Assembly: GCA_035273665.1 (NCBI GenBank) | Contig: DATEOW010000128.1 | Location: 4,609 to 68,608 of the forward strand | DNA: 64,000 nt | Direction of reading: 5' to 3' | Source: Burkholderiales bacterium | GTDB taxonomy: Bacteria > Pseudomonadota > Gammaproteobacteria > Burkholderiales > SG8-39 | In this document: positions 38,542 to 57,695 of the stretch, piece after piece | How positions within the stretch are numbered: position 1 is the first letter of the stretch | How the letters are laid out: each line of letters begins with the position of its first letter | Translations under genes and position numbers: made by a program | Notes under the pieces: generated by a model | Told to the model about the DNA's origin: nothing | What the model saw: the letters and a program-made list of their open reading frames with translations, nothing else | Databases searched by the model: none

Positions 38542-38557
38542 TGGCATAGGTCTTGCG
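38542..38557 (+). promoter_or_regulatory. sigma54 -24/-12 promoter upstream of rpoN itself
   Basis: TGGCATaggtcTTGCG. -12 is about 74 nt upstream of the rpoN ATG at 38630. Confidence 0.75.
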
Positions 38558-38585
38558 AACCCTCGCGCATTGGTTGTGATGCGTG

Positions 38586-38608
38586 CCTTTTGCGCGCAAC
38601 GCAAAAGG
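38586..38608 (+). other. 9-bp stem hairpin in the rpoN 5' UTR
   Basis: CCTTTTGCG-cgcaa-CGCAAAAGG, with no U-tract, 21 nt upstream of the rpoN ATG at 38630 and 12 nt upstream of its GGAGGG RBS. Confidence 0.6.
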
Positions 38609-38629
38609 GTTCCGAACTTTGGAGGGAAT

Positions 38630-40096
38630 ATGGCTATTGCACTAGAAATGAGGCAAAAACAGCAGCTCGCCCTAACACCGCAGCTGCAACATGCCTTGAA
38701 GCTTCTCCAACTTTCCGCGCTGGAATTCGCGCAGGAAATGGGCGAGGCGATGAACAATAATCCTTTCATTGAGGAAGTCCCTCAAACCAAGACGGCGACC
38801 GCGGAAGTGCCGTTAGGCGTCCCTTCCGCCCCTGCGGCTGAAGTGCCGGTTGAGAGCGTTGTTTCACCGAGCGGCGCGACCACCGACATGGAAGGCGATC
38901 ACGATGGCGAAGAGCGCCTGGGCTACGAGTCCGCAACCTTTTCCAGCAACGGTTCCAGCGACGGCGACGGCGATTGGACGGACTGGAGTGAGCCGGAACC
39001 GACGCTACATGCCCACCTGCGCGAACAATTGCTGCTGTCGCAGCTTGGCGAACGCGACCGCGCCTTGGCGCATTTCATTGTCGATGCGCTCGACGACGAT
39101 GGTTATATCAAGCAGGAACTTGATGAGCTCGTAGACATCACACTTTCTGAACACGGTGTCACGGTTGACGATTTGCGCATGGCCCTTAAGTTGGTCCAGA
39201 CCCTGGATCCTCCGGGGATCGGCGCACGCAATTTAGAGGAGTGCCTCATGTTGCAACTCAACAATCACAAGGACAACCCGCGTGTGCACGAGGCTGCGAG
39301 CAAAATCGTGCAGAAACACCTGCAGGTGCTGGGCGCGCATGAGTTAGGCAAGCTGCAACAGCTCGTCGGTTGCGACGAAGACACCTTGCACAATGCGGTC
39401 GCGCTCATCCGCTCCCTCGATCCCAAGCCGGGATTGCGGTTTGGATCCGGCGAAGCGCGTTTCGTCGTGCCTGACGTCATGGTGAACAAGATTCGCGGCA
39501 AGTGGACAGTCACAATGAATCCCGCGGTGATGCCGCGTTTGCGAATCAACCGGAGCTACGCCGAAGCGCTGGCCGGCGGACAAAACAGCTATCTCACTAA
39601 ACAGCTCCACGAAGCGCGTTGGCTCTTGCGCAGCATGGAGCAGCGCTTCGTGACCATCCAGCGTGTTGCAGAAGCAATCGTTTCCCGCCAGAAGCTCTTT
39701 TTTGAATACGGCGAAGTCGCGATGAAGCCGATGGCGCTTAAACATGTCGCCGCGCAATTGGGCGTCCACGAATCCACGGTCTGCCGTGTGACAAATAATA
39801 AGTTCATGGCGACGCCTCGCGGTGTTTTCGAGTTCAAACATTTCTTCTCCCGTACGCTTTCCACGGACGCAGGTGGAGCGGCATCGGCCACGGCGGTGCG
39901 CGCTTTGTTGAAGGAAATGATCAATACGGAAAGTCCGACGCAGCCCTTGTCGGATGCACGCCTAGCGACTTTATTGTCTGAGCAAGGACTGCGGGTCGCC
40001 CGGCGCACCATAACCAAGTACCGCACGTTGATGCGGGTGCCTAGCGTCGAGGTCCGCCGTGCGCTCGGTAAACAAGCCGCCCGTGCCGCGGCCTGA
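38630..40096 (+). CDS. rpoN: RNA polymerase sigma-54 factor (RpoN), non-canonical genomic context
   Basis: ATG after GGAGGG. Region I MRQKQQLALTPQLQHALKLLQLS, an acidic region II, a core-binding region, an HTH, and the RpoN box ARRTITKYR. No lptB, hpf or ptsN neighbours. Confidence 0.92.
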   Translation: MAIALEMRQKQQLALTPQLQHALKLLQLSALEFAQEMGEAMNNNPFIEEVPQTKTATAEVPLGVPSAPAAEVPVESVVSPSGATTDMEGDHDGEERLGYESATFSSNGSSDGDGDWTDWSEPEPTLHAHLREQLLLSQLGERDRALAHFIVDALDDDGYIKQELDELVDITLSEHGVTVDDLRMALKLVQTLDPPGIGARNLEECLMLQLNNHKDNPRVHEAASKIVQKHLQVLGAHELGKLQQLVGCDEDTLHNAVALIRSLDPKPGLRFGSGEARFVVPDVMVNKIRGKWTVTMNPAVMPRLRINRSYAEALAGGQNSYLTKQLHEARWLLRSMEQRFVTIQRVAEAIVSRQKLFFEYGEVAMKPMALKHVAAQLGVHESTVCRVTNNKFMATPRGVFEFKHFFSRTLSTDAGGAASATAVRALLKEMINTESPTQPLSDARLATLLSEQGLRVARRTITKYRTLMRVPSVEVRRALGKQAARAAA

Positions 40097-43314: not shown

Positions 43315-44427
43315 ATGGTCGACCAGGCCCTGGCCGACGCGGGTTTATGCTTTAGCTCGGACAACGATCCGGGTATCCGGCGTAAACGGAGCGGCCGGGG
43401 TTTTTCATACGTGGACGAGAATGGCGTGCGGATCGAGGACGAATCGGTTCTGCAACGCATTCGTTCACTCGCCATTCCACCGGCCTACAAAGAGGTGTGG
43501 ATTTGCACCAAGGCCAATGGTCATCTGCAAGCGACCGGGATCGATGCACGAGGGCGCAAACAATACCGCTATCACCCAGACTGGCGTGCGGTGCGCGATG
43601 CGGATAAATTCGCGCGCCTTTGCGATTTCGGGCGTGCATTGACCCGAATACGCAAGCGCGTCAGTGCAGATCTGAAGCTCCCGGGTTTGGCACGTGACCG
43701 TGTGATCGCGACCGTCGTACGGCTGTTGGATCGCACTTCTATTCGCATCGGCAACGAACAGTACGCACGCGAGAATAAGTCTTACGGCCTCACGACCTTG
43801 CGCACGCGCCATGTCCGCCTGCGCGGAAACCTTATCCAATTTGAGTTCCGGGGCAAGTCAGGCGTACTCCATTCGATTTCAGTGACGGACCCGCTGGCCG
43901 CAGAGGTGGTGAGAGGCTGTCTTGATTTGCCTGGGCAAGAACTTTTTCAATACCTCGACGACACGGGCGCACGACGCACGGTGACGTCTTCGGATGTCAA
44001 CGCCTATTTATGCGCGGCAGGGGGGCAGGATTTCAGTGCAAAGGACTTCCGCACTTGGTATGCGACCATGGATGCGCTGGAGATGCTCAGCGCTTTGCAG
44101 TTCGAGACGCAGCGGGAAGCGAAGGCGCACATTAAGGAAAGTCTTCATCGCATCGCACAACGCCTGGGAAACACGCCGACGATGTGCCGCAAGGCCTACG
44201 TCCATCCGGGAGTGTTGCAGGCTTTTATGGAAGGTCGTTTAAGCAGCGTCGTGCGCGCTGGCCGGCGCAATAAACGGGAACAGCTCTTGCAACTTTTGCA
44301 GGACCTCTCTCGGGGCGCGTCGCGGCTCGCCAAGCAACCAAAAAAAACAAGAAGCTCGGCCCGTCCGGCAGTCCCGAAGGCAAGAGCTTTTAACCTATCG
44401 CAAGTAAAGGAGCAGATATGGCTGTAG
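43315..44427 (+). CDS. DNA topoisomerase IB (poxvirus/eukaryote-like bacterial TopIB)
   Basis: IPPAYKEVWI...ATGIDARGRKQYRYHP, RIGNEQYARENKSYGLTTLR, FRGKSG, FSAKDFRTW, and the catalytic-Tyr motif CRKAYVHP. Confidence 0.85.
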   Translation: MVDQALADAGLCFSSDNDPGIRRKRSGRGFSYVDENGVRIEDESVLQRIRSLAIPPAYKEVWICTKANGHLQATGIDARGRKQYRYHPDWRAVRDADKFARLCDFGRALTRIRKRVSADLKLPGLARDRVIATVVRLLDRTSIRIGNEQYARENKSYGLTTLRTRHVRLRGNLIQFEFRGKSGVLHSISVTDPLAAEVVRGCLDLPGQELFQYLDDTGARRTVTSSDVNAYLCAAGGQDFSAKDFRTWYATMDALEMLSALQFETQREAKAHIKESLHRIAQRLGNTPTMCRKAYVHPGVLQAFMEGRLSSVVRAGRRNKREQLLQLLQDLSRGASRLAKQPKKTRSSARPAVPKARAFNLSQVKEQIWL

Positions 44428-45170
44428 AAATCTCAACTGCGCAACGGCGCATGTTCTTTCAGCCGATTTCCTGGGCGGCGATCTTTGCTGCGCTTGCAGT
44501 CGGCATTGCAGTGCAAATGCTCTTGATGCTTCTTGGGCTGGCCTTTGGCGCGTCTGTTGTCGAGCCCGTTGAAACCAGTGCTCGCGAAGTATCACTGAGC
44601 GCAACGACTTGGAGTACCGGCAGCATGATTATCGCCGCCTTCATCGGCGGATATGTCGCCTCCCGTTCATCGGGTCTCCGGCGAAAGGGTGACGGCATGC
44701 TGCACGGCGCCGTAGCGTGGGCTGCTACGACTTTGTTGTATGCGGTCCTTGCGTCGACAGTCCTCGGCCAAGCAACCGCGGGCGTGTTCGGCGCGCTACG
44801 TCCGCTCGTAGTGAGTTCATTGCCCGCTACCGGCGAGATTGCACAGAGCGCGCAAAGCGGTGAGCAGGCGCGTGCTGAAGTGCAACGTTCGCTAGAATCG
44901 GCCGGACTCACGAGTGAGCAGGCGCTGAACATTGTGGATCAGATGGCCGCCGTGTCGGGTGATCCACAAGCTTCTCCCGAGTCGCAAGCGCGTGCTGAAG
45001 AGGCCGCTGACCGGGTGGGCACCGCGACGGGATGGTTGAGCGCGGCAGTATTACTTTCCCTGTTGGCAGGCGTATTGGGCGGTCTTGTCGGTACAGTTGC
45101 GCAACGCCGCGTCACGACACGACAAGCGGATTATGGGGACGGACGCGTGCTCTCGCGCACAACTATTTAA
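44418..45170 (+). CDS. Integral membrane protein (hypothetical)
   Basis: 250 aa with about 5 TM segments. Overlaps the TopIB stop by 10 nt, so it is the last gene of that operon. Confidence 0.6.
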   Translation: MAVEISTAQRRMFFQPISWAAIFAALAVGIAVQMLLMLLGLAFGASVVEPVETSAREVSLSATTWSTGSMIIAAFIGGYVASRSSGLRRKGDGMLHGAVAWAATTLLYAVLASTVLGQATAGVFGALRPLVVSSLPATGEIAQSAQSGEQARAEVQRSLESAGLTSEQALNIVDQMAAVSGDPQASPESQARAEEAADRVGTATGWLSAAVLLSLLAGVLGGLVGTVAQRRVTTRQADYGDGRVLSRTTI

Positions 45171-45177
45171 GGACAAT

Positions 45178-46203
45178 TTATCGTTGTGCAGCAGATCCCC
45201 GCCCTTTACGCGGGGATTTGTTTTTGGGCGTAGCGAAAGCGCGGGGCAACGGTTCTTCCAGTCGTTCGCAGAAATAAGCCACGGTACGTTGCAAGCCTGC
45301 ATCGAGTTCGACAATGGGATTCCATTCCAGAGCGCGCGCCGCAAGTGAGATGTCGGGACAGCGCTGCATCGGATCATCGGCCGGCAAGTCGCGATAGACC
45401 AACTCGGAATCGGAGCCGGTCAACGCAATAATCTGCTCGGCCAGCTCCCCGATGGTGGATTCGCATGGATTCCCCAGATTGACCGGGCCGATGAAATCTT
45501 CCGGGGTCGCCATCAACCGCACCAGTCCTTCGATCAAGTCGGTGACATAACAGAACGAGCGAGTTTGTTCGCCGCGTCCGTAAATTGTTATCGGTGCACC
45601 GCGCAAGGCTTGCACAATGAAGTTGGACACGACCCGACCGTCGTCGGCCTGCATGCGCGGGCCATAAGTGTTGAAGATACGCGCGATCTTTACTTTGACG
45701 CGATGCTGCCGGTGATAGTCGAAGTAAAGCGTCTCTGCGCAACGCTTGCCTTCGTCATAGCATGCGCGTGGGCCGATCGGATTCACATGTCCCCAATAAT
45801 GCTCAGGCTGAGGATGGAGTTTTGGATCGCCGTACACCTCGCTCGTGGAGGCTTGCAGGATGGGTACTTTCAACCGCTTTGCCAGACCCAGCATGTTAAT
45901 GGAACCATGCACGCAGGTTTTGAGCGTTTGAACGGGATCGTTCTGATAGTGAATCGGTGAAGCGGGGCAGGCGAGGTTATAGATCTGATCCACTTCGACA
46001 TACAGCGGGAAGGTGATGTCATGGCGCAACAGTTCGAAGCGCGGGTGGCGCAGGAGATGTACGATGTTCTCGCGGTCGCCTGTATAGAAGTTGTCCACAC
46101 ACAGCACTTCGTCCCCGTTTTGCAAGAGACGCTCGCATAGATGCGAGCCGAGAAATCCGGCGCCGCCGGTCACCATCACGCGTTGAGGTCCGCTTCTTTT
46201 CAT
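45178..46203 (-). CDS. UDP-glucuronate decarboxylase (UDP-xylose synthase)-like SDR
   Basis: [14 protein letters not shown], YxxxK (YDEGKR), and strong UXS-like blocks ([31 protein letters not shown]). About 25-aa basic C-terminal tail. Confidence 0.8.
45195..45225 (+). terminator. Intrinsic terminator of the 41958-45170 operon
   Basis: ATCCCCGC-cctttac-GCGGGGAT followed by TTGTTTTT. It lies inside the 3' tail of the convergent UXS ORF. Confidence 0.7.
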
Positions 46204-46214
46204 CTTTGCTCCAA

Positions 46215-47162
46215 TCAGGCGCAAACGCGCCGAAAGACCGCCAGCCAGTCGGCAACAAAGCGATCGATATGAAAACGCTCACACGCCAATTCCCGCGCGG
46301 TCCGGCCAAGGGCTCTCGCTTCATCCGGGTTGTGCAGCAGCGCCTGCATGCATTCGACGAGTCGCTCGACCCGGGTGTCGATATAACCGCTTTCCCCATC
46401 GCGAATGACCGCGCTCATTTCCGTCGTGGCAAGGGCAACAATCGGCAAACCCACCATCATTGCCTCGATCACCGCGAGCCCCATGCTGGTCCAGCGAATG
46501 GGATTGAAGAAAAAACGATAACGCGCCATGGCTGCCGGTAAAGCATTGTTTTCGATTTCACCCAAACCGCCGACGCGTTCCGCATCCATACCCACAAGGT
46601 CAAGCGGTACACGTTCGCGCACCGTGTGGAAGACATCCGCGCCCAGCCGTCTGCCTCGGCGCGGCAAGTTATTGACCACCACAATGCCGCGTTCCAACTC
46701 GCCGCTGTATTGGGCGGCGCTCAGCGGTTTTACGCCGTGCTCCACGACCGTGGTCGGCGTGCGTCCGCTATCCCACATGAGCCGATTGAAATGCGTGCAA
46801 TGCACGAGTAGGGCATTCGCGTCATCCACCCAATGACGGGTGTCCGTGGGGTGCTCTTGCGGCGGATCATGTTCGAGATAAATGGCGGGTAAACGACGCT
46901 GTGCATCGGAGAGTAGATTCAACCGATCTTTTTCCCACCCTTGCTTGTGCTGGTAGAGCACACAATCGAAGGCCTGCTCGCGCACATGTTCGATGGGGAG
47001 ATCAATAAGGTTGTCTCCCCAAGGGAGCGTGCCGGTTCTGCCGGCATAGCCCGGGGACCGCATTGCGTCGGCAATGACGTAGAAGTCATGGGGCACTTGC
47101 GATAGGTAATACAGATAATTGCCGTGTACATGCCAGGTCAAGATGCGGAGGCGTTTTGCCAT
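46215..47162 (-). CDS. Glycosyltransferase (GT-B fold, GT1/GT4-like)
   Basis: 315 aa. C-terminal EX7E-like region ([15 protein letters not shown]). Confidence 0.7.
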
Positions 47163-47177
47163 GCTGACTCCAGAAGG

Positions 47178-48227
47178 TTAGGCCGCAAGACTGCTGTGCT
47201 GTCTGAGCATTCGCAGCGCGGTATTCGTCACTTCGGCGACCGTGACGCCGCGCGCACATTCGTGTTCGGTCGGGCAGGTGTGATACGCACAGGGACGGCA
47301 GGGCACGTCGCGCCACAACACCGGGTGTTTGCCGGTATCCAAGGGCGCCCAGCGACGCACGTCAGCGCCGGAAGACACCACGACACTGGGTGTGCCGACC
47401 GCCGTTGCGATATGCGAGATCCCTGTGTCGTTGCACACGACCAGGCGCGCCTCTGCGACCAGCGCAGCGGAAGCGCCCATGCTGGTACGGCCGACGAGAT
47501 TGCGCGCCGGGTGGCGCATGCGTCTTTGTAGCGTCTCGCCGATTTCGCGTTCTTCGCCGCTACCGGTCAACACGATTTCAAAGCCGAGATCGGCGATGGC
47601 ATCGGCGACCGCTGCGAAGGCATCTACAGGCCAACGGCGCGAGGGCAATCTCGCGCCTGCATGGACGCATACATAGGGACGAACAATATTGGATTCGGTA
47701 GCCAAAACCGCTGCGAGCTCCTCGCGTTCAGGCGGATGAATCGGAAACTCCAACGCCGTTCCGCATGAAGCAATACCCATCGCTTCCATGAGCTGGAGGT
47801 AAATCAAAATCTCGTGAGTTCCTGTTGGCCATACCGGGAAATGCGCAGGTACTGCCGCAGGATCGGGGCGATAGCCAAAAACAGCCTTCGCCCCGAGACT
47901 GCCGACAATGAGATTCACAATGCCTCCCGAGCCATGCATTTGAATGGCCAAATCGAACTGCCGCATTTGCGCATCAATAAAAAAATCAGGTAGTGCATCC
48001 AGGTCGGGTTCCCGTTCCGGCAGACCAGGGAAGCCGGGAAACGCCATGAGTTCGTCGACATAGGGGAAGCGGCGAACGAAATCGGCGGCCCAGGGCAGGC
48101 CGATTAATGTGATGCGCGCCGCCGGATAAGCAGCCCGCAACGCCCGCATGGCTGGCACAGTGCAAAGCAGATCGCCCAATTGCAGCGCGCGAAAGACTGC
48201 GATGTTGCGAATGCTTTCGCTGGGCAT
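47178..48227 (-). CDS. Glycosyltransferase family 9 (heptosyltransferase-like)
   Basis: Start MPSESIRNIAVFRALQLGDLLCTVPAMRAL (GT9 N-terminal motif). CNDTGISHIATAVGTP near the C-terminus. Confidence 0.8.
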   Translation of the reverse strand: MPSESIRNIAVFRALQLGDLLCTVPAMRALRAAYPAARITLIGLPWAADFVRRFPYVDELMAFPGFPGLPEREPDLDALPDFFIDAQMRQFDLAIQMHGSGGIVNLIVGSLGAKAVFGYRPDPAAVPAHFPVWPTGTHEILIYLQLMEAMGIASCGTALEFPIHPPEREELAAVLATESNIVRPYVCVHAGARLPSRRWPVDAFAAVADAIADLGFEIVLTGSGEEREIGETLQRRMRHPARNLVGRTSMGASAALVAEARLVVCNDTGISHIATAVGTPSVVVSSGADVRRWAPLDTGKHPVLWRDVPCRPCAYHTCPTEHECARGVTVAEVTNTALRMLRQHSSLAA

Positions 48228-48235
48228 TGCCGTTC

Positions 48236-49237
48236 TCAAAATGTGCTCCGGTAGAGCGAGCAAGTGCGGCAAATCTGCGGCGGTAGGTCGGTCGCCAGGG
48301 CATGGCGGAAGTTTCCATAGGCAGGGCCGTTCCACACTTCTTCCACCCCTTGCGCGAGCATGTTGCCGAGGTTGACGCGATCGGCGGTCACCATGCAACA
48401 AGGCACCGCGTCGCCGCGATAATTCAGATAGGCACCGCGTAAGGGCCAGTCGCAACCGGGCGCACGCAAAGGCGCATCGCCTTCAAGCGCCGGCAGCCGT
48501 AGCCTGATACCCAATTCCGCCGCTCGATCGCGTGCAGCCGAAAAGGCGGTAGCGATGAGACTGCGATCTGCCGACAGCAAGCTTTGTGTGCCGTAGAAAT
48601 TGCGCATCGGAATATAAGAAGGAGGAAGCTCGGTTTCGCCAAAATCATGCGCGAGATGCTGGACGAAGATCGAGTCGATGCTCAACTCGTGTGCGAGCCC
48701 CACGAGCGCGCTGAGTTGATCAAGATTCGCCCGCATAACGACCGTCACAATGCGCAATTCCGGCGTTGCGGAACCCGTTTCGCGCTTGGCCTGAACGATG
48801 CGACGGATATTGCGCAATACCTTGACGAAGGAAGCGCCGCGACGAATGTTTTCATAGACTTCGGCTGTCGCGGCATCGAGCGAAATGTGTAGTGCACCCA
48901 ATCCGCTTTTCACGCACTCGTGAGCGCGTTCTTCGGTCAGCAAGGTCAGGTTGGAATTTGTCGAAACGAAAAGCCCGCGTGCGACGGCATGACGCACCAT
49001 GCGGAAAAATTCCGGATGCAATAGCGGTTCGCCCAGGCCTTGGAGATGGAGTTCGTCCGCGTCCGAGAACCCATCCAATAGGCGGCAAAAATCGTCGAAG
49101 CTCAAATGCGCGGGTTGACCGTCAGTCGGCAGATCTTTACGTAAATCGATCGCGCACATCGCGCAATGCAGATTGCATTGCCCCACCGGTTCGATCTGGA
49201 CAAAACGTGGCAGCGGAATATCGGCGCGTGCGTTCAT
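48236..49237 (-). CDS. Radical SAM enzyme with C-terminal SPASM-like Cys cluster
   Basis: CNLHCAMC (CX3CX2C) at the N-terminus. C-terminal CDWP...VPCCMV...CRTCSLY. ATGA overlap with the upstream GT2 stop. Confidence 0.8.
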   Translation of the reverse strand: MNARADIPLPRFVQIEPVGQCNLHCAMCAIDLRKDLPTDGQPAHLSFDDFCRLLDGFSDADELHLQGLGEPLLHPEFFRMVRHAVARGLFVSTNSNLTLLTEERAHECVKSGLGALHISLDAATAEVYENIRRGASFVKVLRNIRRIVQAKRETGSATPELRIVTVVMRANLDQLSALVGLAHELSIDSIFVQHLAHDFGETELPPSYIPMRNFYGTQSLLSADRSLIATAFSAARDRAAELGIRLRLPALEGDAPLRAPGCDWPLRGAYLNYRGDAVPCCMVTADRVNLGNMLAQGVEEVWNGPAYGNFRHALATDLPPQICRTCSLYRSTF

Positions 49238-50223
49238 GCGAAACGCACTCGAAACTTGAAAGCGCCGGCGATGCGCCAAAAGACGGCGACCGGCGGAATG
49301 AGAGCGGAGGTCACCAGCATTTCGGCAATGTGCCGCCATGAGCGCTGCGTATGGCGTAGACGCCGATAGGTGAAATGCGCCGTCCATGTCGCCCACGCGA
49401 GCAATGCAAAGCCGGCGAGGGATTCAGTGTCCGCGATCAGGCCGATGAGGGCGAGTCCCAGCAAGAAAACGGCGAAGTAGTATGACCATGGCCCATGCGA
49501 TGCGATTCGGTGACGATAGAGCGCCGGATGTTTTTTGAAAAGCAGCGCCTCAAAGAAATTGTTCTTTTGCGTTTTGAGACTCACGCCCCAAGGCGCGGGG
49601 CGCACGGGATGCAATACGAGAGCCTCGGGCGCGGTGCCGATATATTGGCCCGATCGCAACAACGAGAATTGCAGATCGGAGTCTTCACGCCATGGCCGCC
49701 GAAAGCGCTCGTCGAAGCCGTCGACCAATTCCAGCGCGGTACGTCGGACGAAACAGTTAGCGGTCACAAATTCCGCAGTATCGAGGCCGGCCGTATTGAG
49801 TTCCCAGTCTGTCGGTTCAGGCGGAAGCGGGACCTTCACTTTGCCGGTCACGGCCGCATGCTGGGCTTGCATCGCTTTCAGGCCTTCGGCTAACCAGTTT
49901 CGCGACGGCACCGTGTCGTCATCGGTGAATGCGATGACGTCTGCTTGCGCCTTTCTCCAGCCCACATTGCGCGCAGCCGCCGGTCCGCCCCGCGGGGAGG
50001 GGCTGCGCAAGTAACGTATAAAGGTCTGGGCCGATTCCCTGGCCATGCGTGTGACGAGTGCAAGCGTATCGTCGGACCAACCATCATCCACCACAATGAT
50101 TTCGTATTCGGCGGCGGGCAGACGTTGATGCCGCAGGGCGATCAAACATCGCTGCAATAGAACCGGCCGCCCGCAAGTGGGAACAACGACGGAAACTCGG
50201 GGCGTGAAGTCGTCAGTCTTCAT
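49234..50223 (-). CDS. Glycosyltransferase family 2 with C-terminal TM helices
   Basis: VSVVVPTCGR...IVVDDG...FTDDD (DxD). Hydrophobic C-terminal third. Confidence 0.8.
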   Translation of the reverse strand: MKTDDFTPRVSVVVPTCGRPVLLQRCLIALRHQRLPAAEYEIIVVDDGWSDDTLALVTRMARESAQTFIRYLRSPSPRGGPAAARNVGWRKAQADVIAFTDDDTVPSRNWLAEGLKAMQAQHAAVTGKVKVPLPPEPTDWELNTAGLDTAEFVTANCFVRRTALELVDGFDERFRRPWREDSDLQFSLLRSGQYIGTAPEALVLHPVRPAPWGVSLKTQKNNFFEALLFKKHPALYRHRIASHGPWSYYFAVFLLGLALIGLIADTESLAGFALLAWATWTAHFTYRRLRHTQRSWRHIAEMLVTSALIPPVAVFWRIAGAFKFRVRFA

Positions 50224-51986
50224 GCCACGGCCCGAACCGCGTTTTGCGAAAACTCACCAGCGGCAACCGCTTGTGAACGCTTGCTCAACACATAGGAGCC
50301 CATTACCAGCGCATCGATCGGGGTGCTATAGAAGGCCTCGATAGCGTCGCGGGGACTACAGACGATCGGTTGGCCACGGCTGTTGAACGAGGTGTTCACC
50401 AACACGGGCACACCGGTCCGCCGCTCGAACGCCTTGAGCAGATTGTAATAAGCCGGGTTATGTTTGCCGTCTACGGTCTGCACGCGCGCGGTACGATCCA
50501 CGTGCGTCGCGGCGGGAATATGCGACAACTTTTCTTCGCGGACGTCGTAGATGAATAGCATGAAGGGCGCCTTGCGCGTCGCCTTGCCGCGCACGAACCA
50601 GTCATCGAAACGCTCTTCGAGCACTACCGGCGCGACAGGGCGAAAATCTTCGCGGTCTTTCAGCTCATTCAAACGGGCCTTCATATCCGGATTGATGGGG
50701 GAGGCGAGAATCGATCGTGCCCCCAAGGCGCGCGGGCCGAATTCCATTCGCCCCTGGAACCAGCCGATGATCTGGTCTTGTGCGAGCAACGCTGCGGTTT
50801 CTTCCGCCGGATCCTCCATGCGGCGAAATGGAATCTTGCTCCATTGGAGTAGCGCTTCAATGTCCTCGTCGTCATAGGCTGGGCCGAGATAAGCGTGATC
50901 CATCTGCCAAGCCCTCGGGCCATGCCGTTCACGCAAATCTACCCATAGCGCGGCGCCGAGTGCCGTGCCAGCGTCGCCTGCGGCGGGTTGTACCCATACT
51001 TCATCGAAGAGTCCGGCATCGCGGATTCGCGCGTTCATGACGCAATTGAGGGCAACACCGCCGGCCATTGCGAGTTTGGTCTCGCCACTTCGATGGCGTA
51101 ACCACGTTGCCAATTTGACGGCACTTTCTTCCAAGGCCTTTTGCAAGGAGGCGGACACGTCGAAATGACGCGCATCGAAGCGGCCTCCGCGTGGCCGCGC
51201 AGGCCCAAAATGCTTTTCCAAATCGGCATCGACGAGGCGATAACCGCCTTCATTATCGATTTGCAGCATCTTGCGGAACTTGTCGAGATATCGAGGTGTA
51301 CCGTAGGAGGCAAGCGCCATGACTTTGTATTCATCCGAAGAATGCAGAAAGCCTAGCCATCTTGTCGTGTCCTCATAGAGCATGCCGAGCGAATGCGGCA
51401 TATCAACCTGCTTGATGCGCTGGAGTTGTCCATCTCGCCAAATGCCATAAGTGGTGGTCGCCGCTTCGCCCCGGCCGTCGAGGGTCATGACGGCGCAATG
51501 CTCGAAAGGCGCGGCGAGGCATGCGCTTGCCTCGTGGGCGAGGTGATGCTCCACGTAATGCCATGCATATCGCAACTGTCCTTCGAAGCGTGCGCGCAAA
51601 TGTAAGGGTGCGCCGTCCGCCAACTGGCGCGAAGCATTGTGTACGTATAGATAGAAGAGGGGGTCCCAAGGACCTGCGCCTTCCGCTGAAGGCGCGGAAG
51701 GATGCAGCGGTAGGTTGATCGCATGATGATCGGAAGGTTGGTAAGCCAATTCCCGTGGATCGAGAGAGTAAGCGACATGGTCCACGTCGGAGAGCTTGAT
51801 GCCCGCTTCACGCAAGCAGTAATCAATCGCGTTGAAAGGCAATTCCCACACGGTGAACGGTACGGGTCGCTTGGCATGCTTGATCCGACTGAAACGTTCT
51901 TCTTCGGCCGCCGCGAGCACGACCCCGTCGCGCACTAGGCAAGCGGCACTATCGTGGAACGCAGCGTTGATTCCCAATGTATACAT
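50220..51986 (-). CDS. Carbamoyltransferase (NodU/CmcH family)
   Basis: MYTLGINAAFHDSAACLVRDG...EEERFSRIKH...HHLAHEASA...GGVALNC. 588 aa from ATG 51986. Confidence 0.85.
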   Translation of the reverse strand: MYTLGINAAFHDSAACLVRDGVVLAAAEEERFSRIKHAKRPVPFTVWELPFNAIDYCLREAGIKLSDVDHVAYSLDPRELAYQPSDHHAINLPLHPSAPSAEGAGPWDPLFYLYVHNASRQLADGAPLHLRARFEGQLRYAWHYVEHHLAHEASACLAAPFEHCAVMTLDGRGEAATTTYGIWRDGQLQRIKQVDMPHSLGMLYEDTTRWLGFLHSSDEYKVMALASYGTPRYLDKFRKMLQIDNEGGYRLVDADLEKHFGPARPRGGRFDARHFDVSASLQKALEESAVKLATWLRHRSGETKLAMAGGVALNCVMNARIRDAGLFDEVWVQPAAGDAGTALGAALWVDLRERHGPRAWQMDHAYLGPAYDDEDIEALLQWSKIPFRRMEDPAEETAALLAQDQIIGWFQGRMEFGPRALGARSILASPINPDMKARLNELKDREDFRPVAPVVLEERFDDWFVRGKATRKAPFMLFIYDVREEKLSHIPAATHVDRTARVQTVDGKHNPAYYNLLKAFERRTGVPVLVNTSFNSRGQPIVCSPRDAIEAFYSTPIDALVMGSYVLSKRSQAVAAGEFSQNAVRAVA

Positions 51987-51987
51987 G

Positions 51988-53139
51988 TCAATCCTGCGGC
52001 AAAAGAAAATCCGGTTGTGTGTGCGGAGCGATGTCGTGCAGCAGCTCCTGCGCTGCGGCACATACTTGTGCGGGAGCGACTCCGCGAAGACATTGATGGT
52101 GGCCTTGCTCGCAGACGCTCCGATAGCAGAAACGGCAAGGGACATCCGTGTAAAGCACGCGTTGCGGAACCTGCCATGGACGATGCTGGGGATTGGTCAA
52201 GGCGTACAAATCCACGACCGGCGTGCCCAGGGCCGCAGCCAGGTGCGCCGGACCCGTGTTATTGGCAATGACCAATTTCGCATCGGCGATTAGCGCTGCG
52301 AGTTCGCCAAGGGAAAACATCCCTGCGAGCGGCCAAGCGCCATTGTGATTTCCAGCAACGCGATGGACGAGCGCCGCTTCATCCTCGCCGCCCGTCACGA
52401 GAACTTGATGGCCGGTCTCGCGGATCAAAGACTGCACGACCGCATGGAAATGTTCGGGCGGATAACGACGAGAGGCGGCGGTAGCGCCCGGATGGACCAC
52501 GATCCAAGGACGCTGCAAATCTACGCCGAGCGCGTTTAGCTTGGATAGCGTTTGTTCGATCTCGCTGCGTTTTAAGCGAAATGAAAGTTTTTCGTTGGCC
52601 GTTTCGCAACCGATGCTGGCGACAAGATCGAGTTGTCTGCGCGCTTCGTGACGCACTCGGGTATGCGGTTCGATCTCCGGTTCCCAATCACTTAGAAGGT
52701 GATAGGGATTTTCTCGTGCGTGTGCAAGCCGCAGCGGAATGCCCGCCTGCCAACATAAGAGGGCGGCAGGCAAGGCGCTTTGGCTATATACGGTGAAAAT
52801 TACAGCCGCATCGAAGCGCCTCGTTCTTAGCGTTTCCACCAGTGCCTGCATTTGGCGCTGATGTGCAGCCGACTCGTGTTTCATCCATGGCGCGCTGTAG
52901 ACCAGGCAATCTTCGAGTTCCGGCACATAAGGAACGATCGCGGCGCCGGAAGTCGAGGTGAGTAAGGTCAGCTGCTTTCCGGCGACGCCGCTTTCCTTCA
53001 GTGCGCGAAAGGCCGGTGTCGTCATGAGCACATCACCCATCGCGTCCAGGCGCACGCACAAAATGCGGCGCGCACCGCGCCAGAAATCGCTGCTCACATG
53101 CACCGCTCGCGGGACCAAGGGGACGAGCGGCGCGTTCAC
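51988..53139 (-). CDS. Glycosyltransferase family 9 (heptosyltransferase-like)
   Basis: GTG start overlapping the phosphatase stop (GTGA). ILCVRLDAMGDVLMTTPAFRAL and NNTGPAHLAAALGTP. Confidence 0.75.
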   Translation of the reverse strand: MNAPLVPLVPRAVHVSSDFWRGARRILCVRLDAMGDVLMTTPAFRALKESGVAGKQLTLLTSTSGAAIVPYVPELEDCLVYSAPWMKHESAAHQRQMQALVETLRTRRFDAAVIFTVYSQSALPAALLCWQAGIPLRLAHARENPYHLLSDWEPEIEPHTRVRHEARRQLDLVASIGCETANEKLSFRLKRSEIEQTLSKLNALGVDLQRPWIVVHPGATAASRRYPPEHFHAVVQSLIRETGHQVLVTGGEDEAALVHRVAGNHNGAWPLAGMFSLGELAALIADAKLVIANNTGPAHLAAALGTPVVDLYALTNPQHRPWQVPQRVLYTDVPCRFCYRSVCEQGHHQCLRGVAPAQVCAAAQELLHDIAPHTQPDFLLPQD

Positions 53140-53699
53140 TGACGCATCCCCAGAATATGCGCTGTCACCCCATCCAGATCGCGGGCGATATGGTCGGGTG
53201 TACGAAGACTCGAAGCAATCCATTCGGTTTCGGAACCCACGTCCAATAAGATACTGCGGCACCCCGCTCGATGACCTGCCTCGACATCATCGAGAATGTC
53301 ACCGACCATCCATGAAGCTTCAAGATCGATGCCGCGCTCTTGCGCGGCGCGGGTCAACATACCCGCCGCAGGTTTGCGGCAATCGCAGGCAATGGCATAG
53401 GGTGCGACTTGCCCCTCGGGATGATGTGGGCAGTAGTAGAAGGCATCCAACCGTGCGCCTTCTTCGCTTAGCAAGGATTGCAAACGAGTCCATACAAACT
53501 GAAGCGCGTCTTCGTCAAAACGGCCAAGGGCGACACCCGCCTGGTTGCTCACCAGCACAAGCTCGTAGTTGTGTTCACCGAGCCGCCGCAACGCGTCTCC
53601 GACGCCTTCTCGCAGACGGATCTGCGAGGGGTCGACATTGAAAGCGACGTCATGAACGAGCGTTCCGTCTTTGTCGATGAAGACAGCCGCTTTTTTCAT
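53136..53699 (-). CDS. HAD-IIIA sugar-phosphate phosphatase (GmhB / D,D-heptose-1,7-bisphosphate phosphatase-like)
   Basis: FIDKDGTL, SNQAGV, Zn motif YYCPHHPEG...CDCRKP, GDILDDVEAG. Confidence 0.8.
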   Translation of the reverse strand: MKKAAVFIDKDGTLVHDVAFNVDPSQIRLREGVGDALRRLGEHNYELVLVSNQAGVALGRFDEDALQFVWTRLQSLLSEEGARLDAFYYCPHHPEGQVAPYAIACDCRKPAAGMLTRAAQERGIDLEASWMVGDILDDVEAGHRAGCRSILLDVGSETEWIASSLRTPDHIARDLDGVTAHILGMRQ

Positions 53700-54970
53700 C
53701 CTTCGCTTTGCACCTGTTCACCCAGAGTAGATGCCCACACCGGCCCTTTGATCACGCGCTTGTAGACCGGCTGTAGTTCTTGAGCAATTTTTTGCCAGGT
53801 ATAACGGCTGCGCACATGACGAATACCGGCGCGACCGAATGCGCGTCCCAGTTCCGGGTTGCGATAAAAACACGCAAGTCGATTCGCCAGTGCCTCCGGG
53901 TGCTGAGGAGGCACCAGGTAACCGGTGACTGAATCGACGACGCTGCTTTTGATTCCCCCGACTGAAGCGCCCACGACCGGTGTGCCGCAAGCCATCGCCT
54001 CGAGGGGCGTAATACCGAAGGGCTCATACCACGGCGTCGTCACAAACACGTTCGCCGCCGAGTAGTAATACTTGAGTTCGTTGCGGGGCCGCTGGCCGAA
54101 GAATTGAACCTGCTCCCAAACGCCTTCTTGTCGCGCAATCTCGATCAATCGTCCAATTTCCGGTGTCGCGGCGGGATCAGGTTCGGGAGTGTTGCCGCCG
54201 ACGATCAACAGGCGCGCGCGAATACCGTGGTCCCGCGCGAGGTGACCGATGGCACGAATGACGTTGTCGATGCCTTTACGGGGAACCAGCCGTCCAAGTT
54301 GCAGAACAATGAACTCGTTCGGCGATAGCCCTAACTTCTCGCGTGCGTTGGCCATCCCCATCGTGGCCATTTCCGTCGTGTCGATGCCGCATCCCACGAT
54401 GTCGATCTTTGCTTCATCGGCGCCATATAAATGGATCAAGTCGTCTCGATCTTGGGGGCACTCGGCCACAATCCGATCGGCTAGTTGGACCAGCTCTTCT
54501 TCGATTTGCACTCGGCTTGAAGGAAAACGATCAGCTTCTTGCTGATGGGCGCGTCGCACTTTTCCAAGGGCGTGAAAGGTGATAACGAATGGCAAGCCCA
54601 GGTACTCACGCAGACGTGCCGCGACTAATCCAGACATGAAGAAATTGGCGTGGGCAACATGAAACTGCCGTGTCGCGGCCGCGCAATGCGCGCCCATGCG
54701 CACAGCGAACTCCTGCATGTACGGAAGCAGCCGTTCCTTCTCGATAAATTTCGCCGGTCCGGCGCGAACGTGGACGACGCGAACGTTCGGACCCAAAGCA
54801 ACGATGTCCGGTGAGACCTCATCATCACGGCGGGTAAACACATCCACCTGATGTCCCATCTGTCCTAGTTGTCGAGCAAGCTGCGCCACATAAACATTTT
54901 GTCCTCCGCTATCGACGCCTCCAAGGGCTGCGAGTGGCGACGCGTGTTCGCTGATGAGGGCGATGTTCAT
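53696..54970 (-). CDS. Glycosyltransferase family 4 (sucrose-phosphate-synthase/MshA-like N-terminus)
   Basis: Start MNIALISEHASPLAALGGVDSGGQNVYV. C-terminal EPFGITPLEAMACGTPVV. First gene of the operon. Confidence 0.8.
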   Translation of the reverse strand: MNIALISEHASPLAALGGVDSGGQNVYVAQLARQLGQMGHQVDVFTRRDDEVSPDIVALGPNVRVVHVRAGPAKFIEKERLLPYMQEFAVRMGAHCAAATRQFHVAHANFFMSGLVAARLREYLGLPFVITFHALGKVRRAHQQEADRFPSSRVQIEEELVQLADRIVAECPQDRDDLIHLYGADEAKIDIVGCGIDTTEMATMGMANAREKLGLSPNEFIVLQLGRLVPRKGIDNVIRAIGHLARDHGIRARLLIVGGNTPEPDPAATPEIGRLIEIARQEGVWEQVQFFGQRPRNELKYYYSAANVFVTTPWYEPFGITPLEAMACGTPVVGASVGGIKSSVVDSVTGYLVPPQHPEALANRLACFYRNPELGRAFGRAGIRHVRSRYTWQKIAQELQPVYKRVIKGPVWASTLGEQVQSEG

Positions 54971-55008
54971 CTGGAAGGTTTCATGGCGTTGAAGTTTTGC
55001 TTCCTGCC

Positions 55009-55024
55009 TGCAACCCCTATGCCG
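55009..55024 (-). promoter_or_regulatory. sigma54 -24/-12 promoter of the nine-gene glycosylation operon
   Basis: Minus strand cGGCATaggggTTGCA. -12 is about 40 nt upstream of the ATG at 54970. An AT-rich tract (55030-55075) lies between it and the palindrome at 55162-88. Confidence 0.7.
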
Positions 55025-55161
55025 CTTCACGAAGAAAAAATATCGCGTTCACACTTAAGAAATTTTTCTCAGTACTAGTAGACGCGTAGGACTTGCAGAG
55101 AAGAAACGGATGCAAACGCTCGATTGAATTATTCAAGCGGCTTGAAGCGCATAGATGTTAA

Positions 55162-55188
55162 GCCGATGTGTCTGTCAGACACATCGGC
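55162..55188. repeat. 27-bp perfect palindrome (candidate enhancer/UAS)
   Basis: GCCGATGTGTCTG-T-CAGACACATCGGC. Its centre is about 150 bp upstream of the -24 box at 55023 and about 85 bp upstream of the -24 box at 55259. Confidence 0.85.
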
Positions 55189-55259
55189 AAGATGTCTAGC
55201 GGCAAGATGTGTAGCGGCAAGATGTCTAGCGGCGCGGTGTCTAGCGGCGCGGTGTCTAG
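55185..55259. repeat. Five contiguous 15-bp direct repeats
   Basis: CGGCAAGATGTCTAG / CGGCAAGATGTGTAG / CGGCAAGATGTCTAG / CGGCGCGGTGTCTAG / CGGCGCGGTGTCTAG. The array abuts the palindrome on the left and the -24 GG of the SDR promoter on the right. Confidence 0.9.
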
Positions 55260-55273
55260 GTATGCGCCTTGCG
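55258..55273 (+). promoter_or_regulatory. sigma54 -24/-12 promoter (SDR gene)
   Basis: aGGTATgcgccTTGCG. -12 is about 33 nt upstream of the ATG at 55305 (GGAG RBS). Confidence 0.55.
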
Positions 55274-55304
55274 GCGCGAGGGGCAAACTTTTGGAGCGCA
55301 CCTC

Positions 55305-56153
55305 ATGACACAACGCCCCCCGCAGGAACAAGATCAACAACCCGGCCGAGAAACGGAAATGCGTCCCGCGCCGCGTTCGTTTGCCGAAGGCTACATCGGG
55401 ACAGCCCGGTTGAAAGGGCAAGTAGCATTCATCACCGGCGCGGATAGCGGTATCGGTCGGGCCGCAGCGGTAATGTTGTCGAAAGAGGGTGCGGACATTT
55501 CGATTGTTTATCTGGAGGAACATGAGGACGCACAGTTGACCAAGCGCGCAATCGAAGCCGCCGGCCAACGTTGCTTGCTCATCGCGGGTGACGTCGGTGA
55601 CGAGCGCTTTTGCCGCGAAGCAATCGGTCGAACGATTGCGGAGTTTGGCCGCATCGATGTACTCATCAATAATGCCGCGGAGCAACATGAACAAGAAGAT
55701 CCCGCGAATATCACCGGCGAGCAACTGCGCCGGACTTTTGCGACCAACATCTTCTCGATGTTCTATTGCATCACCGCCGCACTGCCGCATCTTAAAAGCG
55801 GCGCGCGCATCATCAATACGACTTCGGTGACCGCTTACAAAGGAAATCCCGTTCTTATCGATTACGCATCTACGAAGGGTGCGATCGTTGCGCTCACCCG
55901 CTCACTAGCGCTAGCCCTCGTGAAACGCGGCATCAGGGTCAACGCTGTTGCGCCCGGTCCGATTTGGACCCCGCTCATTCCCGCCAGCTTCGACGCCGAG
56001 AAGGTGGCGAAGTTTGGCGAACAAACGCCGATGGGGCGCGCCGGGGAGCCGGACGAGGTGGCGCATTGTTTTGTCTTTCTCGCGACAGAGGCCTCTAGTT
56101 ATATGAGTGGCCAAGTTCTGCACCCGAACGGAGGGGAGGTTGTAAACGGCTAG
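55305..56153 (+). CDS. SDR-family oxidoreductase (YghA / general-stress-protein-39 YdaD-like)
   Basis: FITGADSGIGRA, NNAA, YxxxK (YASTKGA), with the N-terminal hydrophilic extension typical of the YghA/YdaD group. Confidence 0.85.
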   Translation: MTQRPPQEQDQQPGRETEMRPAPRSFAEGYIGTARLKGQVAFITGADSGIGRAAAVMLSKEGADISIVYLEEHEDAQLTKRAIEAAGQRCLLIAGDVGDERFCREAIGRTIAEFGRIDVLINNAAEQHEQEDPANITGEQLRRTFATNIFSMFYCITAALPHLKSGARIINTTSVTAYKGNPVLIDYASTKGAIVALTRSLALALVKRGIRVNAVAPGPIWTPLIPASFDAEKVAKFGEQTPMGRAGEPDEVAHCFVFLATEASSYMSGQVLHPNGGEVVNG

Positions 56154-56294: not shown

Positions 56295-57695
56295 ATGCCC
56301 CACGTTTTGCTCGTCGATGACGATCCAGAAACCCTGGAATGGATGTCCGAATTTGCGAAGGCTGAAGGTTTTACCGTGGCCAAAGCGGGTTCTTTGCGCG
56401 CTGCGCGTATACAGCTTGCGCAAAAGAAACCCGATGTGTTGATCGCCGACTTGCAACTGCCCGACGGAGAAGGGGTGGAACTGGCCACGGATTTGGAGGA
56501 ACTCGAAGGTGTCGAGTTCGTCATGGCCACCGGCCACGCGACGGTAGAAAGCGCGGTGAACGCCTTGCGGCTGGGCGCAACCGATTATCTGACCAAACCG
56601 GTCGACCTAGATCGTTTGCGCGCCATTCTTCAGCGTGTTCCGGGCACCACAGAATTGCGCGAAGAGATCGGCGAGTTGCGTCAAGAACTGCGCGGACTCG
56701 GCCGCTTCGGCCACATCCTCGGCAATTCGCCGGTGATGCACAAACTTTATGATCAACTCGGTCGCGTGGCGCCTACTTCCGCAACGGTGCTGCTAATCGG
56801 CGATAGCGGTACAGGTAAAGAACTTGCGGCACAGACCATCCATGACTTGAGCCGTCGCAAAAAACATCCCTTCCTGCCGCTTAACTGCGGCGCAATGTCC
56901 CCCAATCTGATCGAAAGCGAACTTTTCGGCCATGAAAAGGGCAGTTTCACGGGTGCAGACCGGCAGCATGTCGGCTTTTTTGAACGCGCGAACGGTGGAA
57001 CTTTATTTCTCGACGAAATCACCGAAATGCCCATCGAGCTGCAAGTCAAATTGCTCCGCGTCCTCGAAACGGGTGCCTTCATGCGAGTCGGGACCAACAC
57101 ACCGATCGCGACGGATGTCCGTGTGATTGCAGCAACGAACCGCAGTCCGATGAAAGCGGTGGCTGACGGGAAATTGCGTGAAGACCTTTATCACCGCTTA
57201 AACGTATTCCCGATCAATATGCCGCCACTGCGCGAACGCGGGACGGATATCGAATTTCTGGCGCAGCATTTCTTGGATAAGCTCAATCGTGACGAGGGTT
57301 CACAAAAAGCTTTTTCGCCCGCTGCGCTCGCCGCTCTTTACGCGCATAGCTGGCCGGGCAATGTGCGCGAATTGAAAAACTATGTACAGCGCGTCTACAT
57401 TCTGGCCGATCGTCTAATCGATGTTGAATTCGCACCGCGCATTTTTGCCGATCCTGACCCGAAACCGATTTTGACCGTGCGAGTCGGCAGTACGCTGGAA
57501 GAGGTTAATCGCCGACTGGTCGAAGCGACCATGGCCGAATGCGGCAACGTCCGACGCAAAGCTGCCGAAATGCTCGGCATCAGTCTTAAGACGCTGTATA
57601 ACCGCCTCGCTCAATACAACGCAGAAAAAAATGGCGGGGCAATCGAACCGCTTGAAGACGAGGACATGTACGAGCCGAGCGAAGCACGCTCTTAA
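56295..57695 (+). CDS. sigma54-dependent response regulator (NtrC family: REC-AAA+-Fis HTH), no adjacent kinase
   Basis: REC (LLVDDD...LIADLQLPDG...KP). AAA+ with Walker A GDSGTGKE, sigma54-contact loop GSFTGA (variant of GAFTGA), Walker B LFLDEI. C-terminal HTH AAEMLGISLKTLYNRL. Confidence 0.92.
   Translation: MPHVLLVDDDPETLEWMSEFAKAEGFTVAKAGSLRAARIQLAQKKPDVLIADLQLPDGEGVELATDLEELEGVEFVMATGHATVESAVNALRLGATDYLTKPVDLDRLRAILQRVPGTTELREEIGELRQELRGLGRFGHILGNSPVMHKLYDQLGRVAPTSATVLLIGDSGTGKELAAQTIHDLSRRKKHPFLPLNCGAMSPNLIESELFGHEKGSFTGADRQHVGFFERANGGTLFLDEITEMPIELQVKLLRVLETGAFMRVGTNTPIATDVRVIAATNRSPMKAVADGKLREDLYHRLNVFPINMPPLRERGTDIEFLAQHFLDKLNRDEGSQKAFSPAALAALYAHSWPGNVRELKNYVQRVYILADRLIDVEFAPRIFADPDPKPILTVRVGSTLEEVNRRLVEATMAECGNVRRKAAEMLGISLKTLYNRLAQYNAEKNGGAIEPLEDEDMYEPSEARS

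Follow-up and report, generated by a model that had tools for sequence, protein, structure and literature searches.

A sigma-54-preceded nine-gene glycosylation operon in a Burkholderiales stress island and its relatives in other phyla

What do nine tightly packed glycosylation genes assemble, where does the product go, and when is it needed? The question is raised by an operon on the minus strand of a 64,000-nt stretch of a metagenome-assembled Burkholderiales bacterium (lineage SG8-39; assembly GCA_035273665.1, contig DATEOW010000128.1, positions 4,609 to 68,608), which was analyzed at its full length and is called the window here. This operon represents a reduced version of an uncharacterized cluster that is broadly conserved and spans multiple phyla, and its gene content, synteny, domain identities, and promoter conservation are seen directly in the sequences compared. 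We give somewhat better than even chances to the explanation that this is a sigma-54 operon, located in a stress island, which assembles a heptose-containing oligosaccharide that is probably exported or anchored and is used under stress.

The operon, its relatives, and its enzymes

The window was examined by Pfam and NCBIfam profile scans of the translated open reading frames (ORFs), with their start codons listed. Nine consecutive, densely packed ORFs occupy the minus strand at 45178-54970, and every domain named in a preliminary description of this DNA was recovered in them, as follows.

53696-54970, minus strand: gene 1, retaining GT4 glycosyltransferase, similar to sucrose-phosphate synthase (SPS) and MshA, 424 aa (Glyco_transf_4 and Glycos_transf_1; top NCBIfam match, MshA)
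53136-53699, minus strand: gene 2, HAD-IIIA phosphatase, GmhB-like, 187 aa (top NCBIfam match, GmhB)
51988-53139, minus strand: gene 3 (GT9a), GT9 heptosyltransferase-like protein, 383 aa, GTG start (PF01075, TIGR02195)
50220-51986, minus strand: gene 4, O-carbamoyltransferase of the NodU/CmcH/TobZ family, 588 aa (Carbam_trans_N and Carbam_trans_C)
49234-50223, minus strand: gene 5, predicted membrane-embedded GT2 with three long C-terminal helices, 329 aa (Pfam, AlphaFold model)
48236-49237, minus strand: gene 6, radical SAM protein with a twitch-type (truncated SPASM) C-terminal domain, 333 aa (Pfam/NCBIfam, cysteine pattern)
47178-48227, minus strand: gene 7 (GT9b), second GT9 enzyme, 349 aa (PF01075, 105 bits)
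46215-47162, minus strand: gene 8, GT-B glycosyltransferase with a divergent N-terminal half, 315 aa (the C-terminal Glycos_transf_1 half alone was recognized)
45178-46203, minus strand: gene 9, UDP-glucuronate decarboxylase (UDP-xylose synthase, UXS), an extended SDR, 341 aa (match to human UXS1)

The gene starts match those called independently on a metagenome contig of identical sequence, and the GTG start of GT9a was likewise called on locus L001. From gene 1 to gene 9, the junctions are ATGA, GTGA, a 1-nt gap, ATGA, ATGA, and gaps of 8, 15, and 11 nt, which agrees with the four 4-nt overlaps (ATGA or GTGA) and four gaps of 1 to 15 nt reported before. A single, translationally coupled operon is supported. 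Rfam gave no RNA element within the whole window, and terminator-like hairpins in the scanned operon region were found at chance level only. No clear ribosome-binding site precedes the GT4 start, which is overlapped (ATGA) by the end of a five-codon upstream ORF at 54970-54987 (ATG AAA CCT TCC AGA TGA); this could be a coincidence.

Relatives were compared by tblastn of the nine window proteins against the best 80 of 351 loci from a genome scan. Co-occurrence and synteny of the nine genes, which the preliminary description had put forward as a check on its reading, are extensive: 45 of the 80 loci, from about eight phyla, have five or more of them in synteny, and 10 have all nine. The complete loci are all betaproteobacterial (Casimicrobiaceae, Rhodocyclaceae, Nitrosomonadales), and the gene order is colinear in nine of them, the UXS gene being inverted in L047. 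Gemmatimonadota, Planctomycetota, and Elusimicrobiota carry eight genes, in the order GT9b, GT-B, GT4, HAD, GT9a, carbamoyltransferase, GT2, and radical SAM, and the invariant core among the compared loci is formed by the last three. This gene set is conserved far beyond chance. More than 2,300 homologs of the radical SAM protein were found at an E value of ≤1e-10, many of them 55 to 64% identical. The relatives also have members that extend the set, namely, a classical SDR between GT4 and HAD in 37 loci (62% identical between a cyanobacterium and Noviherbaspirillum), a GH1-like gene ahead of UXS, and, within the cluster of Cyanobacteria and Chloroflexota, an extra GT2 and a methyltransferase. 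The source names of the radical SAM and GT2 homologs are generic throughout, a search of a plasmid database with the radical SAM protein as query gave only 30%-identical genes of Methylobacterium, a neighborhood comparison with the identical radical SAM protein yielded a short contig and no additional flanks, and a full-text literature search of incomplete coverage returned no publication on the cluster, the gene combination, or the stress-island gene set. The product of the cluster appears never to have been identified by anyone.

The first two enzymes bear on the sugar that enters the pathway. The best solved relatives of the GT4 are Tll1590 of Thermosynechococcus (249 bits), which we take to be an SPS, and the MshA of Corynebacterium (210 bits), although its NCBIfam scores are 287 bits versus a cutoff of 462 for MshA and 146 versus 576 for SPS. 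Both SPS and MshA act on phosphorylated acceptors. At the four positions that we assume to be the phosphate ligands of MshA, Lys and Arg are kept in the GT4, and Tyr and Thr are replaced by Phe and Ala, respectively. The HAD protein keeps the DxDGT nucleophile motif and the CPHHP...CDCRKP zinc loop; it scores 146.5 bits against the NCBIfam GmhB model (cutoff, 178), and its best PDB match is the Escherichia coli GmhB (112 bits). In Chloroflexota (Chloroflexia), Cyanobacteria, and Planctomycetota, the orthologous GT4 carries a fused GmhA domain (TIGR00441, 205.7 bits), and the HAD gene is followed by a bifunctional HldE (379 bits, its adenylyltransferase domain exceeding the cutoff). GmhA, HldE, and GmhB together make up the ADP-heptose pathway, and the cluster holds two or three GT9 enzymes able to use ADP-heptose. 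As the HAD is GmhB-like and as GmhA and HldE are found in the same cluster in phyla without heptose lipopolysaccharide (LPS), the simplest reading is that the HAD would supply ADP-heptose to the GT9 enzymes. In the window itself, tblastn found neither GmhA nor HldE. Betaproteobacteria may have dropped the in-cluster copies since their LPS pathway provides them, and the organism of the window presumably uses its LPS copies.

GT9a scores above the cutoff of TIGR02195, heptosyltransferase II (147.9 versus 134.6), and its PDB matches are WaaF and WaaC. GT9b is more divergent, with 96.3 bits against TIGR02195 and scores under every NCBIfam heptosyltransferase cutoff. The carbamoyltransferase has both domains of its family and matches the solved enzymes NovN (330 bits), GdmN (298 bits), and TobZ (261 bits), while its score against the NodU model of NCBIfam is 189 versus a cutoff of 1000. 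NovN, GdmN, TobZ, and NodU serve antibiotic or Nod factor pathways, whereas the target of the cluster enzyme would be a putative glycan. The UXS matches human UXS1 (E = 2e-121, 408 bits), and the GT-B protein, despite its divergent N-terminal half, is among the best conserved in the closest relatives (76% in L003, 73% in L004, and 75% in L005).

The GT2 has MftF as its best NCBIfam match (129 versus a cutoff of 280). Its AlphaFold model (mean predicted local distance difference test [pLDDT], 94.7) consists of a GT-A domain, then interface helices, and finally three long C-terminal helices, and it models as a membrane-embedded enzyme that would work at the membrane. In whole-fold comparison, the best match was the minimal cellulose-synthase-like enzyme PcManGT (PDB 6YV7; template-modeling [TM] score, 0.66), while hyaluronan and cellulose synthases gave 0.56 to 0.61. 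PcManGT and MftF share with it the GT-A domain followed by interface or transmembrane helices, but the GT2 is only about 20% identical to PcManGT, lies below the MftF cutoff, and has three C-terminal helices only.

A comparison of 21 sequences shows no variation at C21, C25, and C28 (CX3CX2C) or at C262, C280, C323, and C326 of the radical SAM protein; the latter four line up with the four twitch-region cysteines of BtrN, which is the pattern of a twitch-type domain. BtrN, a twitch-domain enzyme, oxidizes an aminocyclitol, and its auxiliary cluster is ligated by four Cys residues (PMC9012708). Among solved structures, BlsE, BtrN, PqqE, and DesII are closest, with weak scores of 40 to 46 bits; the core matches BlsE and DesII best, with BlsE giving the best alignment. 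These weak matches may point to a carbohydrate substrate. Unlike BtrN, BlsE, and DesII, the cluster enzyme has the extra invariant cysteines C108 and C281 and is part of a widespread conserved cluster and not of an antibiotic pathway, and a radical SAM sugar transformation of the kind proposed for it is not known outside antibiotic pathways. Orthologs are also found in other settings: in L085, L025, L044, and L061 (54 to 57% identity) no glycosylation gene accompanies them, in Nitrospiraceae they often lie beside proteins matching a query that is an SRPBCC(Polyketide_cyc)+HSP20 fusion, and in L085 the gene adjoins a small methyltransferase gene and a LigD primase-polymerase gene.

Predicted sigma-54 control and the stress island

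The operon had been described as lying behind a sigma-54 promoter 40 nt from the first ATG. We found this element, at a distance of 39 nt, and also a likely activator gene and an rpoN gene.

55009-55024, minus strand: sigma-54-type -24/-12 element cGGCATaggggTTGCA (GGCAT-N5-TTGCA), the core of which ends 39 nt before the GT4 ATG at 54970
56295-57695, plus strand: NtrC-family sigma-54-dependent response regulator (Response_reg, Sigma54_activat, and HTH_8)
38570-40096, plus strand: rpoN, the gene of sigma-54 (three sigma-54 domains; NF009118, 590 bits versus a cutoff of 396; start uncertain, at 38570 or later)

cGGCATaggggTTGCA has GG at -24 and GC at -12 with the right spacing (TGGCAC-N5-TTGCW) and is on the correct strand. 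Conservation in the relatives argues for its use: GG[CT]AY-N5-TTGC is found 35 to 120 nt before the orthologous GT4 start in 17 betaproteobacterial loci, the upstream regions of which are otherwise unalignable, and in an alignment of seven GT4 upstream regions the element is the sole conserved block. In Noviherbaspirillum massiliense it stands in front of separate modules of the cluster, and in L086, a locus labeled Bradyrhizobium, it precedes an operon of an ABC exporter and GT4 that is flanked by two sigma-54 activators. The element was not found in the tested loci of Gemmatimonadota, Planctomycetota, Cyanobacteria, Chloroflexota, and Elusimicrobiota, nor in five betaproteobacterial loci (L032, L047, L074, L077, and L081). 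Within the window, the motif GGCAY-N5-TTGC occurs 13 times versus 2.06 expected; none of 100 shuffles reached 13, the shuffle maximum being 6, and about 10 of the 13 sites are followed, 30 to 80 nt downstream and on the matching strand, by a start codon that has a ribosome-binding site. Constitutive sigma-70 transcription had been named as an observation that would speak against the reading, and no sigma-70-like promoter was seen in the operon and its upstream region (44300-55400, versus 4.5 expected). The sigma-54 promoter is well supported, as far as sequence can support it, by the conserved element, the adjacent activator, the rpoN gene in the window, and the motif enrichment.

The NtrC-type response regulator next door is probably the activator of the operon. 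In L084 the orthologous activator gene is directly divergent from the GT4 gene, and in L086 two activators flank the cluster. The rpoN gene lies downstream of a cardiolipin synthase gene and a small lipoprotein gene. As this is outside the usual lptB-rpoN-hpf setting, the gene is probably a second, specialized sigma-54 copy, and the -24/-12 motif that precedes it at 38543-38556 suggests that this copy is autoregulated. In L086, the two sigma-54 activators follow the cluster, and one of them has no receiver domain.

The 13 sites extend over 32254-63226, mostly before small stress-type genes, and we refer to this region as a sigma-54 island. Several small hydrophilic or membrane proteins are encoded around the operon, many of them behind sigma-54 motifs; examples of genes so preceded are those for a 53-aa membrane protein (35476), a hydrophilic 121-aa protein (35741), a 72-aa lipoprotein (37853), and a PRC-barrel protein (41842). 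The neighbors in the window include PRC-barrel, DUF2383, DUF4142, topoisomerase IB, hemerythrin, Holin-X-like, two AsmA-like, BrkB, ClpB, and cardiolipin synthase genes. The same stress-type neighbors are present in L084 (62 to 68% identity), genes for HSP20, MscS, Ku, and hemerythrin are interleaved with the cluster in Noviherbaspirillum, and in the Chloroflexia locus L055 the cluster adjoins a trehalose synthase (TreS)-maltokinase gene. The stress-linked setting proposed in the preliminary description is borne out by these neighborhoods, and a stress-linked use of the operon is supported.

Destination of the product and rival explanations

The preliminary description had stated that no export or polymerization genes are present. 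This stands for the roughly 40 window ORFs scanned, in which we found no Wzx/Wzy, priming phosphoglycosyltransferase, or lipid A/core domain (the scan left out 1-6, 11.5-13.6, 20.5-23.7, and 32-36 kb), and tblastn over the whole window gave no ortholog of the ABC exporter that is associated with the cluster elsewhere. As a reading of the system, the statement is not supported, since MsbA-like ABC exporters (398 bits to MsbA) lie inside the cluster in 13 loci and in L086 and L087, and the GT2 is predicted to be membrane embedded. In Oxalobacteraceae, an MsbA-related exporter stands ahead of the GT2, radical SAM, and GT-B genes; a planctomycete locus has two MsbA-like half-transporters after the radical SAM gene; and in L086 (987-3758) the operon is led by an MsbA-like exporter fused to a response regulator receiver domain (923 aa). 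The exporters of the relatives and the membrane GT2 favor a product that is exported or membrane anchored rather than a cytoplasmic solute. We can speculate that a diacylglycerol or polyprenyl-phosphate anchor would suit the absence of a priming phosphoglycosyltransferase.

In the scheme that we infer for the substrates, step order, acceptor, cellular destination, and inducing signal, the NtrC-type response regulator would switch on the operon via sigma-54, and a heptose oligosaccharide would be assembled at the cytoplasmic face of the inner membrane. The HAD, as a heptose-1,7-bisphosphate phosphatase of the GmhB type, would contribute to ADP-heptose for the two GT9 transferases, and the UXS would provide UDP-xylose, probably for the adjacent GT-B enzyme. 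The GT4 and the membrane GT2 may extend the glycan with other sugars or initiate it on an acceptor that is membrane bound or phosphorylated. The carbamoyltransferase would then O-carbamoylate a sugar hydroxyl, and the BtrN-like radical SAM enzyme could carry out a radical oxidation, decarboxylation, or epimerization of a sugar. The finished glycoconjugate, a glycolipid or a periplasmic or envelope oligosaccharide, would have a role in desiccation, osmotic, or stationary-phase stress. By the homologies of the enzymes, a product with heptose and xylose, O-carbamoylation, and a radical SAM modification is likely; the preliminary description had foreseen such a composition, with xylose or heptose as possible sugars. 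That these clusters define an undescribed class of exported, heptose-based, O-carbamoylated glycolipids or oligosaccharides, made as a desiccation or osmotic protectant by soil bacteria, both diderm and monoderm, in at least eight phyla, with a radical SAM sugar step and with capture by sigma-54 in Proteobacteria, is a more tentative proposal, which we hold to be possible.

Other products have to be weighed against an exported or anchored heptose oligosaccharide. A conditional modification of the LPS inner core, with extra heptoses added by the GT9 enzymes, a 7-O-carbamoyl-heptose as in the core of Pseudomonas aeruginosa, and side branches attached under stress, seems rather unlikely to us. 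It would be in line with the GT9a score over the heptosyltransferase II cutoff and the matches of this protein to WaaF and WaaC structures, with the precedent of the carbamoylated core heptose known in Pseudomonas, with the similarity of the relatives' exporter to MsbA, and with the envelope genes nearby (AsmA, BrkB, and cardiolipin synthase); a GmhB-like HAD with its zinc loop, two GT9 enzymes, and the in-cluster GmhA and HldE of the relatives are likewise what the cluster shares with the LPS-core ADP-heptose pathway and WaaC/WaaF. However, clusters that are 50 to 60% identical, with their own GmhA, HldE, and GmhB, are found in loci labeled Chloroflexota/Ktedonobacteria, Actinomycetota, and Cyanobacteria, groups in which LPS or its core heptose is not known, and for this reason the LPS core is unlikely as the general acceptor. 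Kdo, lipid A, and Waa genes are missing from the cluster and from the scanned window ORFs, the GT4 resembles enzymes with soluble acceptors, GT9b falls under all LPS heptosyltransferase cutoffs, and the carbamoyltransferase, the radical SAM enzyme, the membrane GT2, the UXS, and the sigma-54 control set the cluster apart from the core pathway. The preliminary description had instead seen in the GT4 and the phosphatase the classical pair of a compatible-solute pathway. In that case they would act as an SPS/SPP- or OtsA/OtsB-like pair, the GT4 glycosylating a sugar phosphate (possibly heptose or sedoheptulose 7-phosphate) and the HAD removing the phosphate, with the other enzymes decorating a soluble cytoplasmic stress glycoside. 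The kinship of the GT4 with SPS and MshA and the phosphorylated acceptors of these enzymes agree with this, as do the HAD gene directly after GT4, with an ATGA overlap in the window and adjacency in Gemmatimonadota and Elusimicrobiota, the GT4-GmhA fusion of several phyla, which could mean that the isomerase product is the substrate, the retention of the HAD in Betaproteobacteria despite their LPS pathway, and the stress-island setting. We nevertheless regard such a solute as improbable and the pairing as not borne out, for the HAD is of the GmhB type and neither SPP nor OtsB type, a conserved SDR separates the two genes in the 37 relatives mentioned, and the same clusters hold HldE and GmhA, which make the ADP-heptose pathway complete. 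In addition, the GT4 lies below the SPS and MshA cutoffs, two of its four presumed MshA-type phosphate-binding positions are replaced, and seven further enzymes, with five glycosyltransferases in all, a membrane GT2, and in-cluster ABC exporters, do not fit a small cytoplasmic solute. The other option raised in the preliminary description, a conditional envelope glycan, comes nearer to the evidence; the LPS core in particular is unlikely.

A mycofactocin-like pathway or protein glycosylation, with the radical SAM enzyme modifying a peptide or protein that the MftF-like GT2 and the other transferases glycosylate, is very improbable. The best NCBIfam match of the GT2 is MftF (129 bits), and the radical SAM protein scores best against maturases of predicted metalloenzymes or tungsten cofactors (132 and 126 bits), with 66 for MftC and 52 for PqqE; some relatives add a methyltransferase, and the radical SAM gene can be solitary. 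GT9 also includes protein O-heptosyltransferases, such as TibC. All of these scores are, however, far under their cutoffs (129/280, 132/400, 126/380, and 66/265), the coupled operon leaves no space for a precursor-peptide gene and has no MftB-, MftD-, or MftE-like genes or small ORF, and matches to TibC-type enzymes reach only E = 1e-4. Furthermore, the auxiliary domain of the radical SAM protein shows four cysteines in the twitch arrangement of BtrN and not the seven of a full SPASM domain, and sugars are the substrates of most of the solved enzymes nearest to it. The exported or anchored heptose oligosaccharide that we favor has its own difficulties. All enzyme functions are assigned by homology, with most NCBIfam scores under the curated cutoffs, and the inducing stress is a guess from the neighboring genes alone. 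Betaproteobacterial clusters retain the HAD despite an expected LPS GmhB, so a second role for this enzyme is possible. The in-cluster SDR, the GH1-like gene, and the ABC exporter, all common in the relatives, are missing from the window operon, and its product may therefore be different or truncated or may depend on genes elsewhere. The L086 cluster has no radical SAM gene, and in Nitrospira, Thermodesulfobacteriota, and other groups this gene is solitary; its link to the glycan is thus not strict. Last, the taxon labels of metagenome-assembled genomes may be wrong.

GT9 heptosyltransferases are mainly known from LPS cores and otherwise from protein heptosylation and a few antibiotics. Protein identities of 50 to 65% from Betaproteobacteria to Cyanobacteria, Chloroflexota, and Planctomycetota would imply that a common envelope or secreted glycoconjugate has been overlooked. 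The radical SAM enzyme would add to the few examples of twitch-type enzymes with a probable carbohydrate substrate, and the operon is a concrete, testable output of a sigma-54 stress island with its own rpoN and activator. As the cluster is carried by cultured bacteria (Noviherbaspirillum massiliense, N. denitrificans, and N. aridicola), its product can be searched for directly.

The intergenic region and other features of the island

Between the operon and the activator gene are a divergent gene and several palindromic or repeated sequences.

55132-55146, no strand assigned: perfect palindrome TTCAAGCGGCTTGAA, a candidate activator site (upstream activating sequence), about 110 bp upstream of the -24 element
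55162-55259, no strand assigned: perfect palindrome with 13-nt arms (55162-55188) running into five tandem 15-bp repeats (55185-55259), in the divergent intergenic region
55305-56153, divergent from the operon: YghA-like SDR, by homology, just upstream of the activator gene

TTCAAGCGGCTTGAA has a single exact copy in the window, and the 15-mer is also found in L004/L084 at a nearly equal distance to the GT4 ATG (182 versus 176 nt); it may be an activator-binding site. The longer palindrome, with the arms GCCGATGTGTCTG/CAGACACATCGGC, and the array of the 15-bp unit CGGCAAGATGTCTAG lie between the operon and the divergent SDR gene, are unique in the window, were not seen in the upstream regions of the relatives that were examined, and could possibly bind a regulator. 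Near the other sigma-54 sites, the window has no further convincing copies of the 21-nt or 15-nt palindromes or of the tandem-repeat unit, so an activator site shared across the island is not definable. The divergent SDR was considered as the missing in-cluster SDR and rejected, as it is 31% identical versus 62% among the cluster SDRs between phyla.

The type IB topoisomerase gene at 43315-44427 lies between the stress genes and the operon and is absent at the corresponding place in L084. ARAGORN placed an 85-nt tRNA-Thr(TGT) at 28541-28625 on the plus strand, within a 1188-aa DUF748/AsmA-like gene on the minus strand; Rfam gave no tRNA there, and the call is probably false. At 63209-63226, two overlapping, complementary sigma-54 motifs, AGGCATGTGCCTTGCA and AGGCACATGCCTTGCC, face outward, toward the BrkB gene on the minus strand and an ORF from 63256 on the plus strand, and may form a bidirectional promoter pair.

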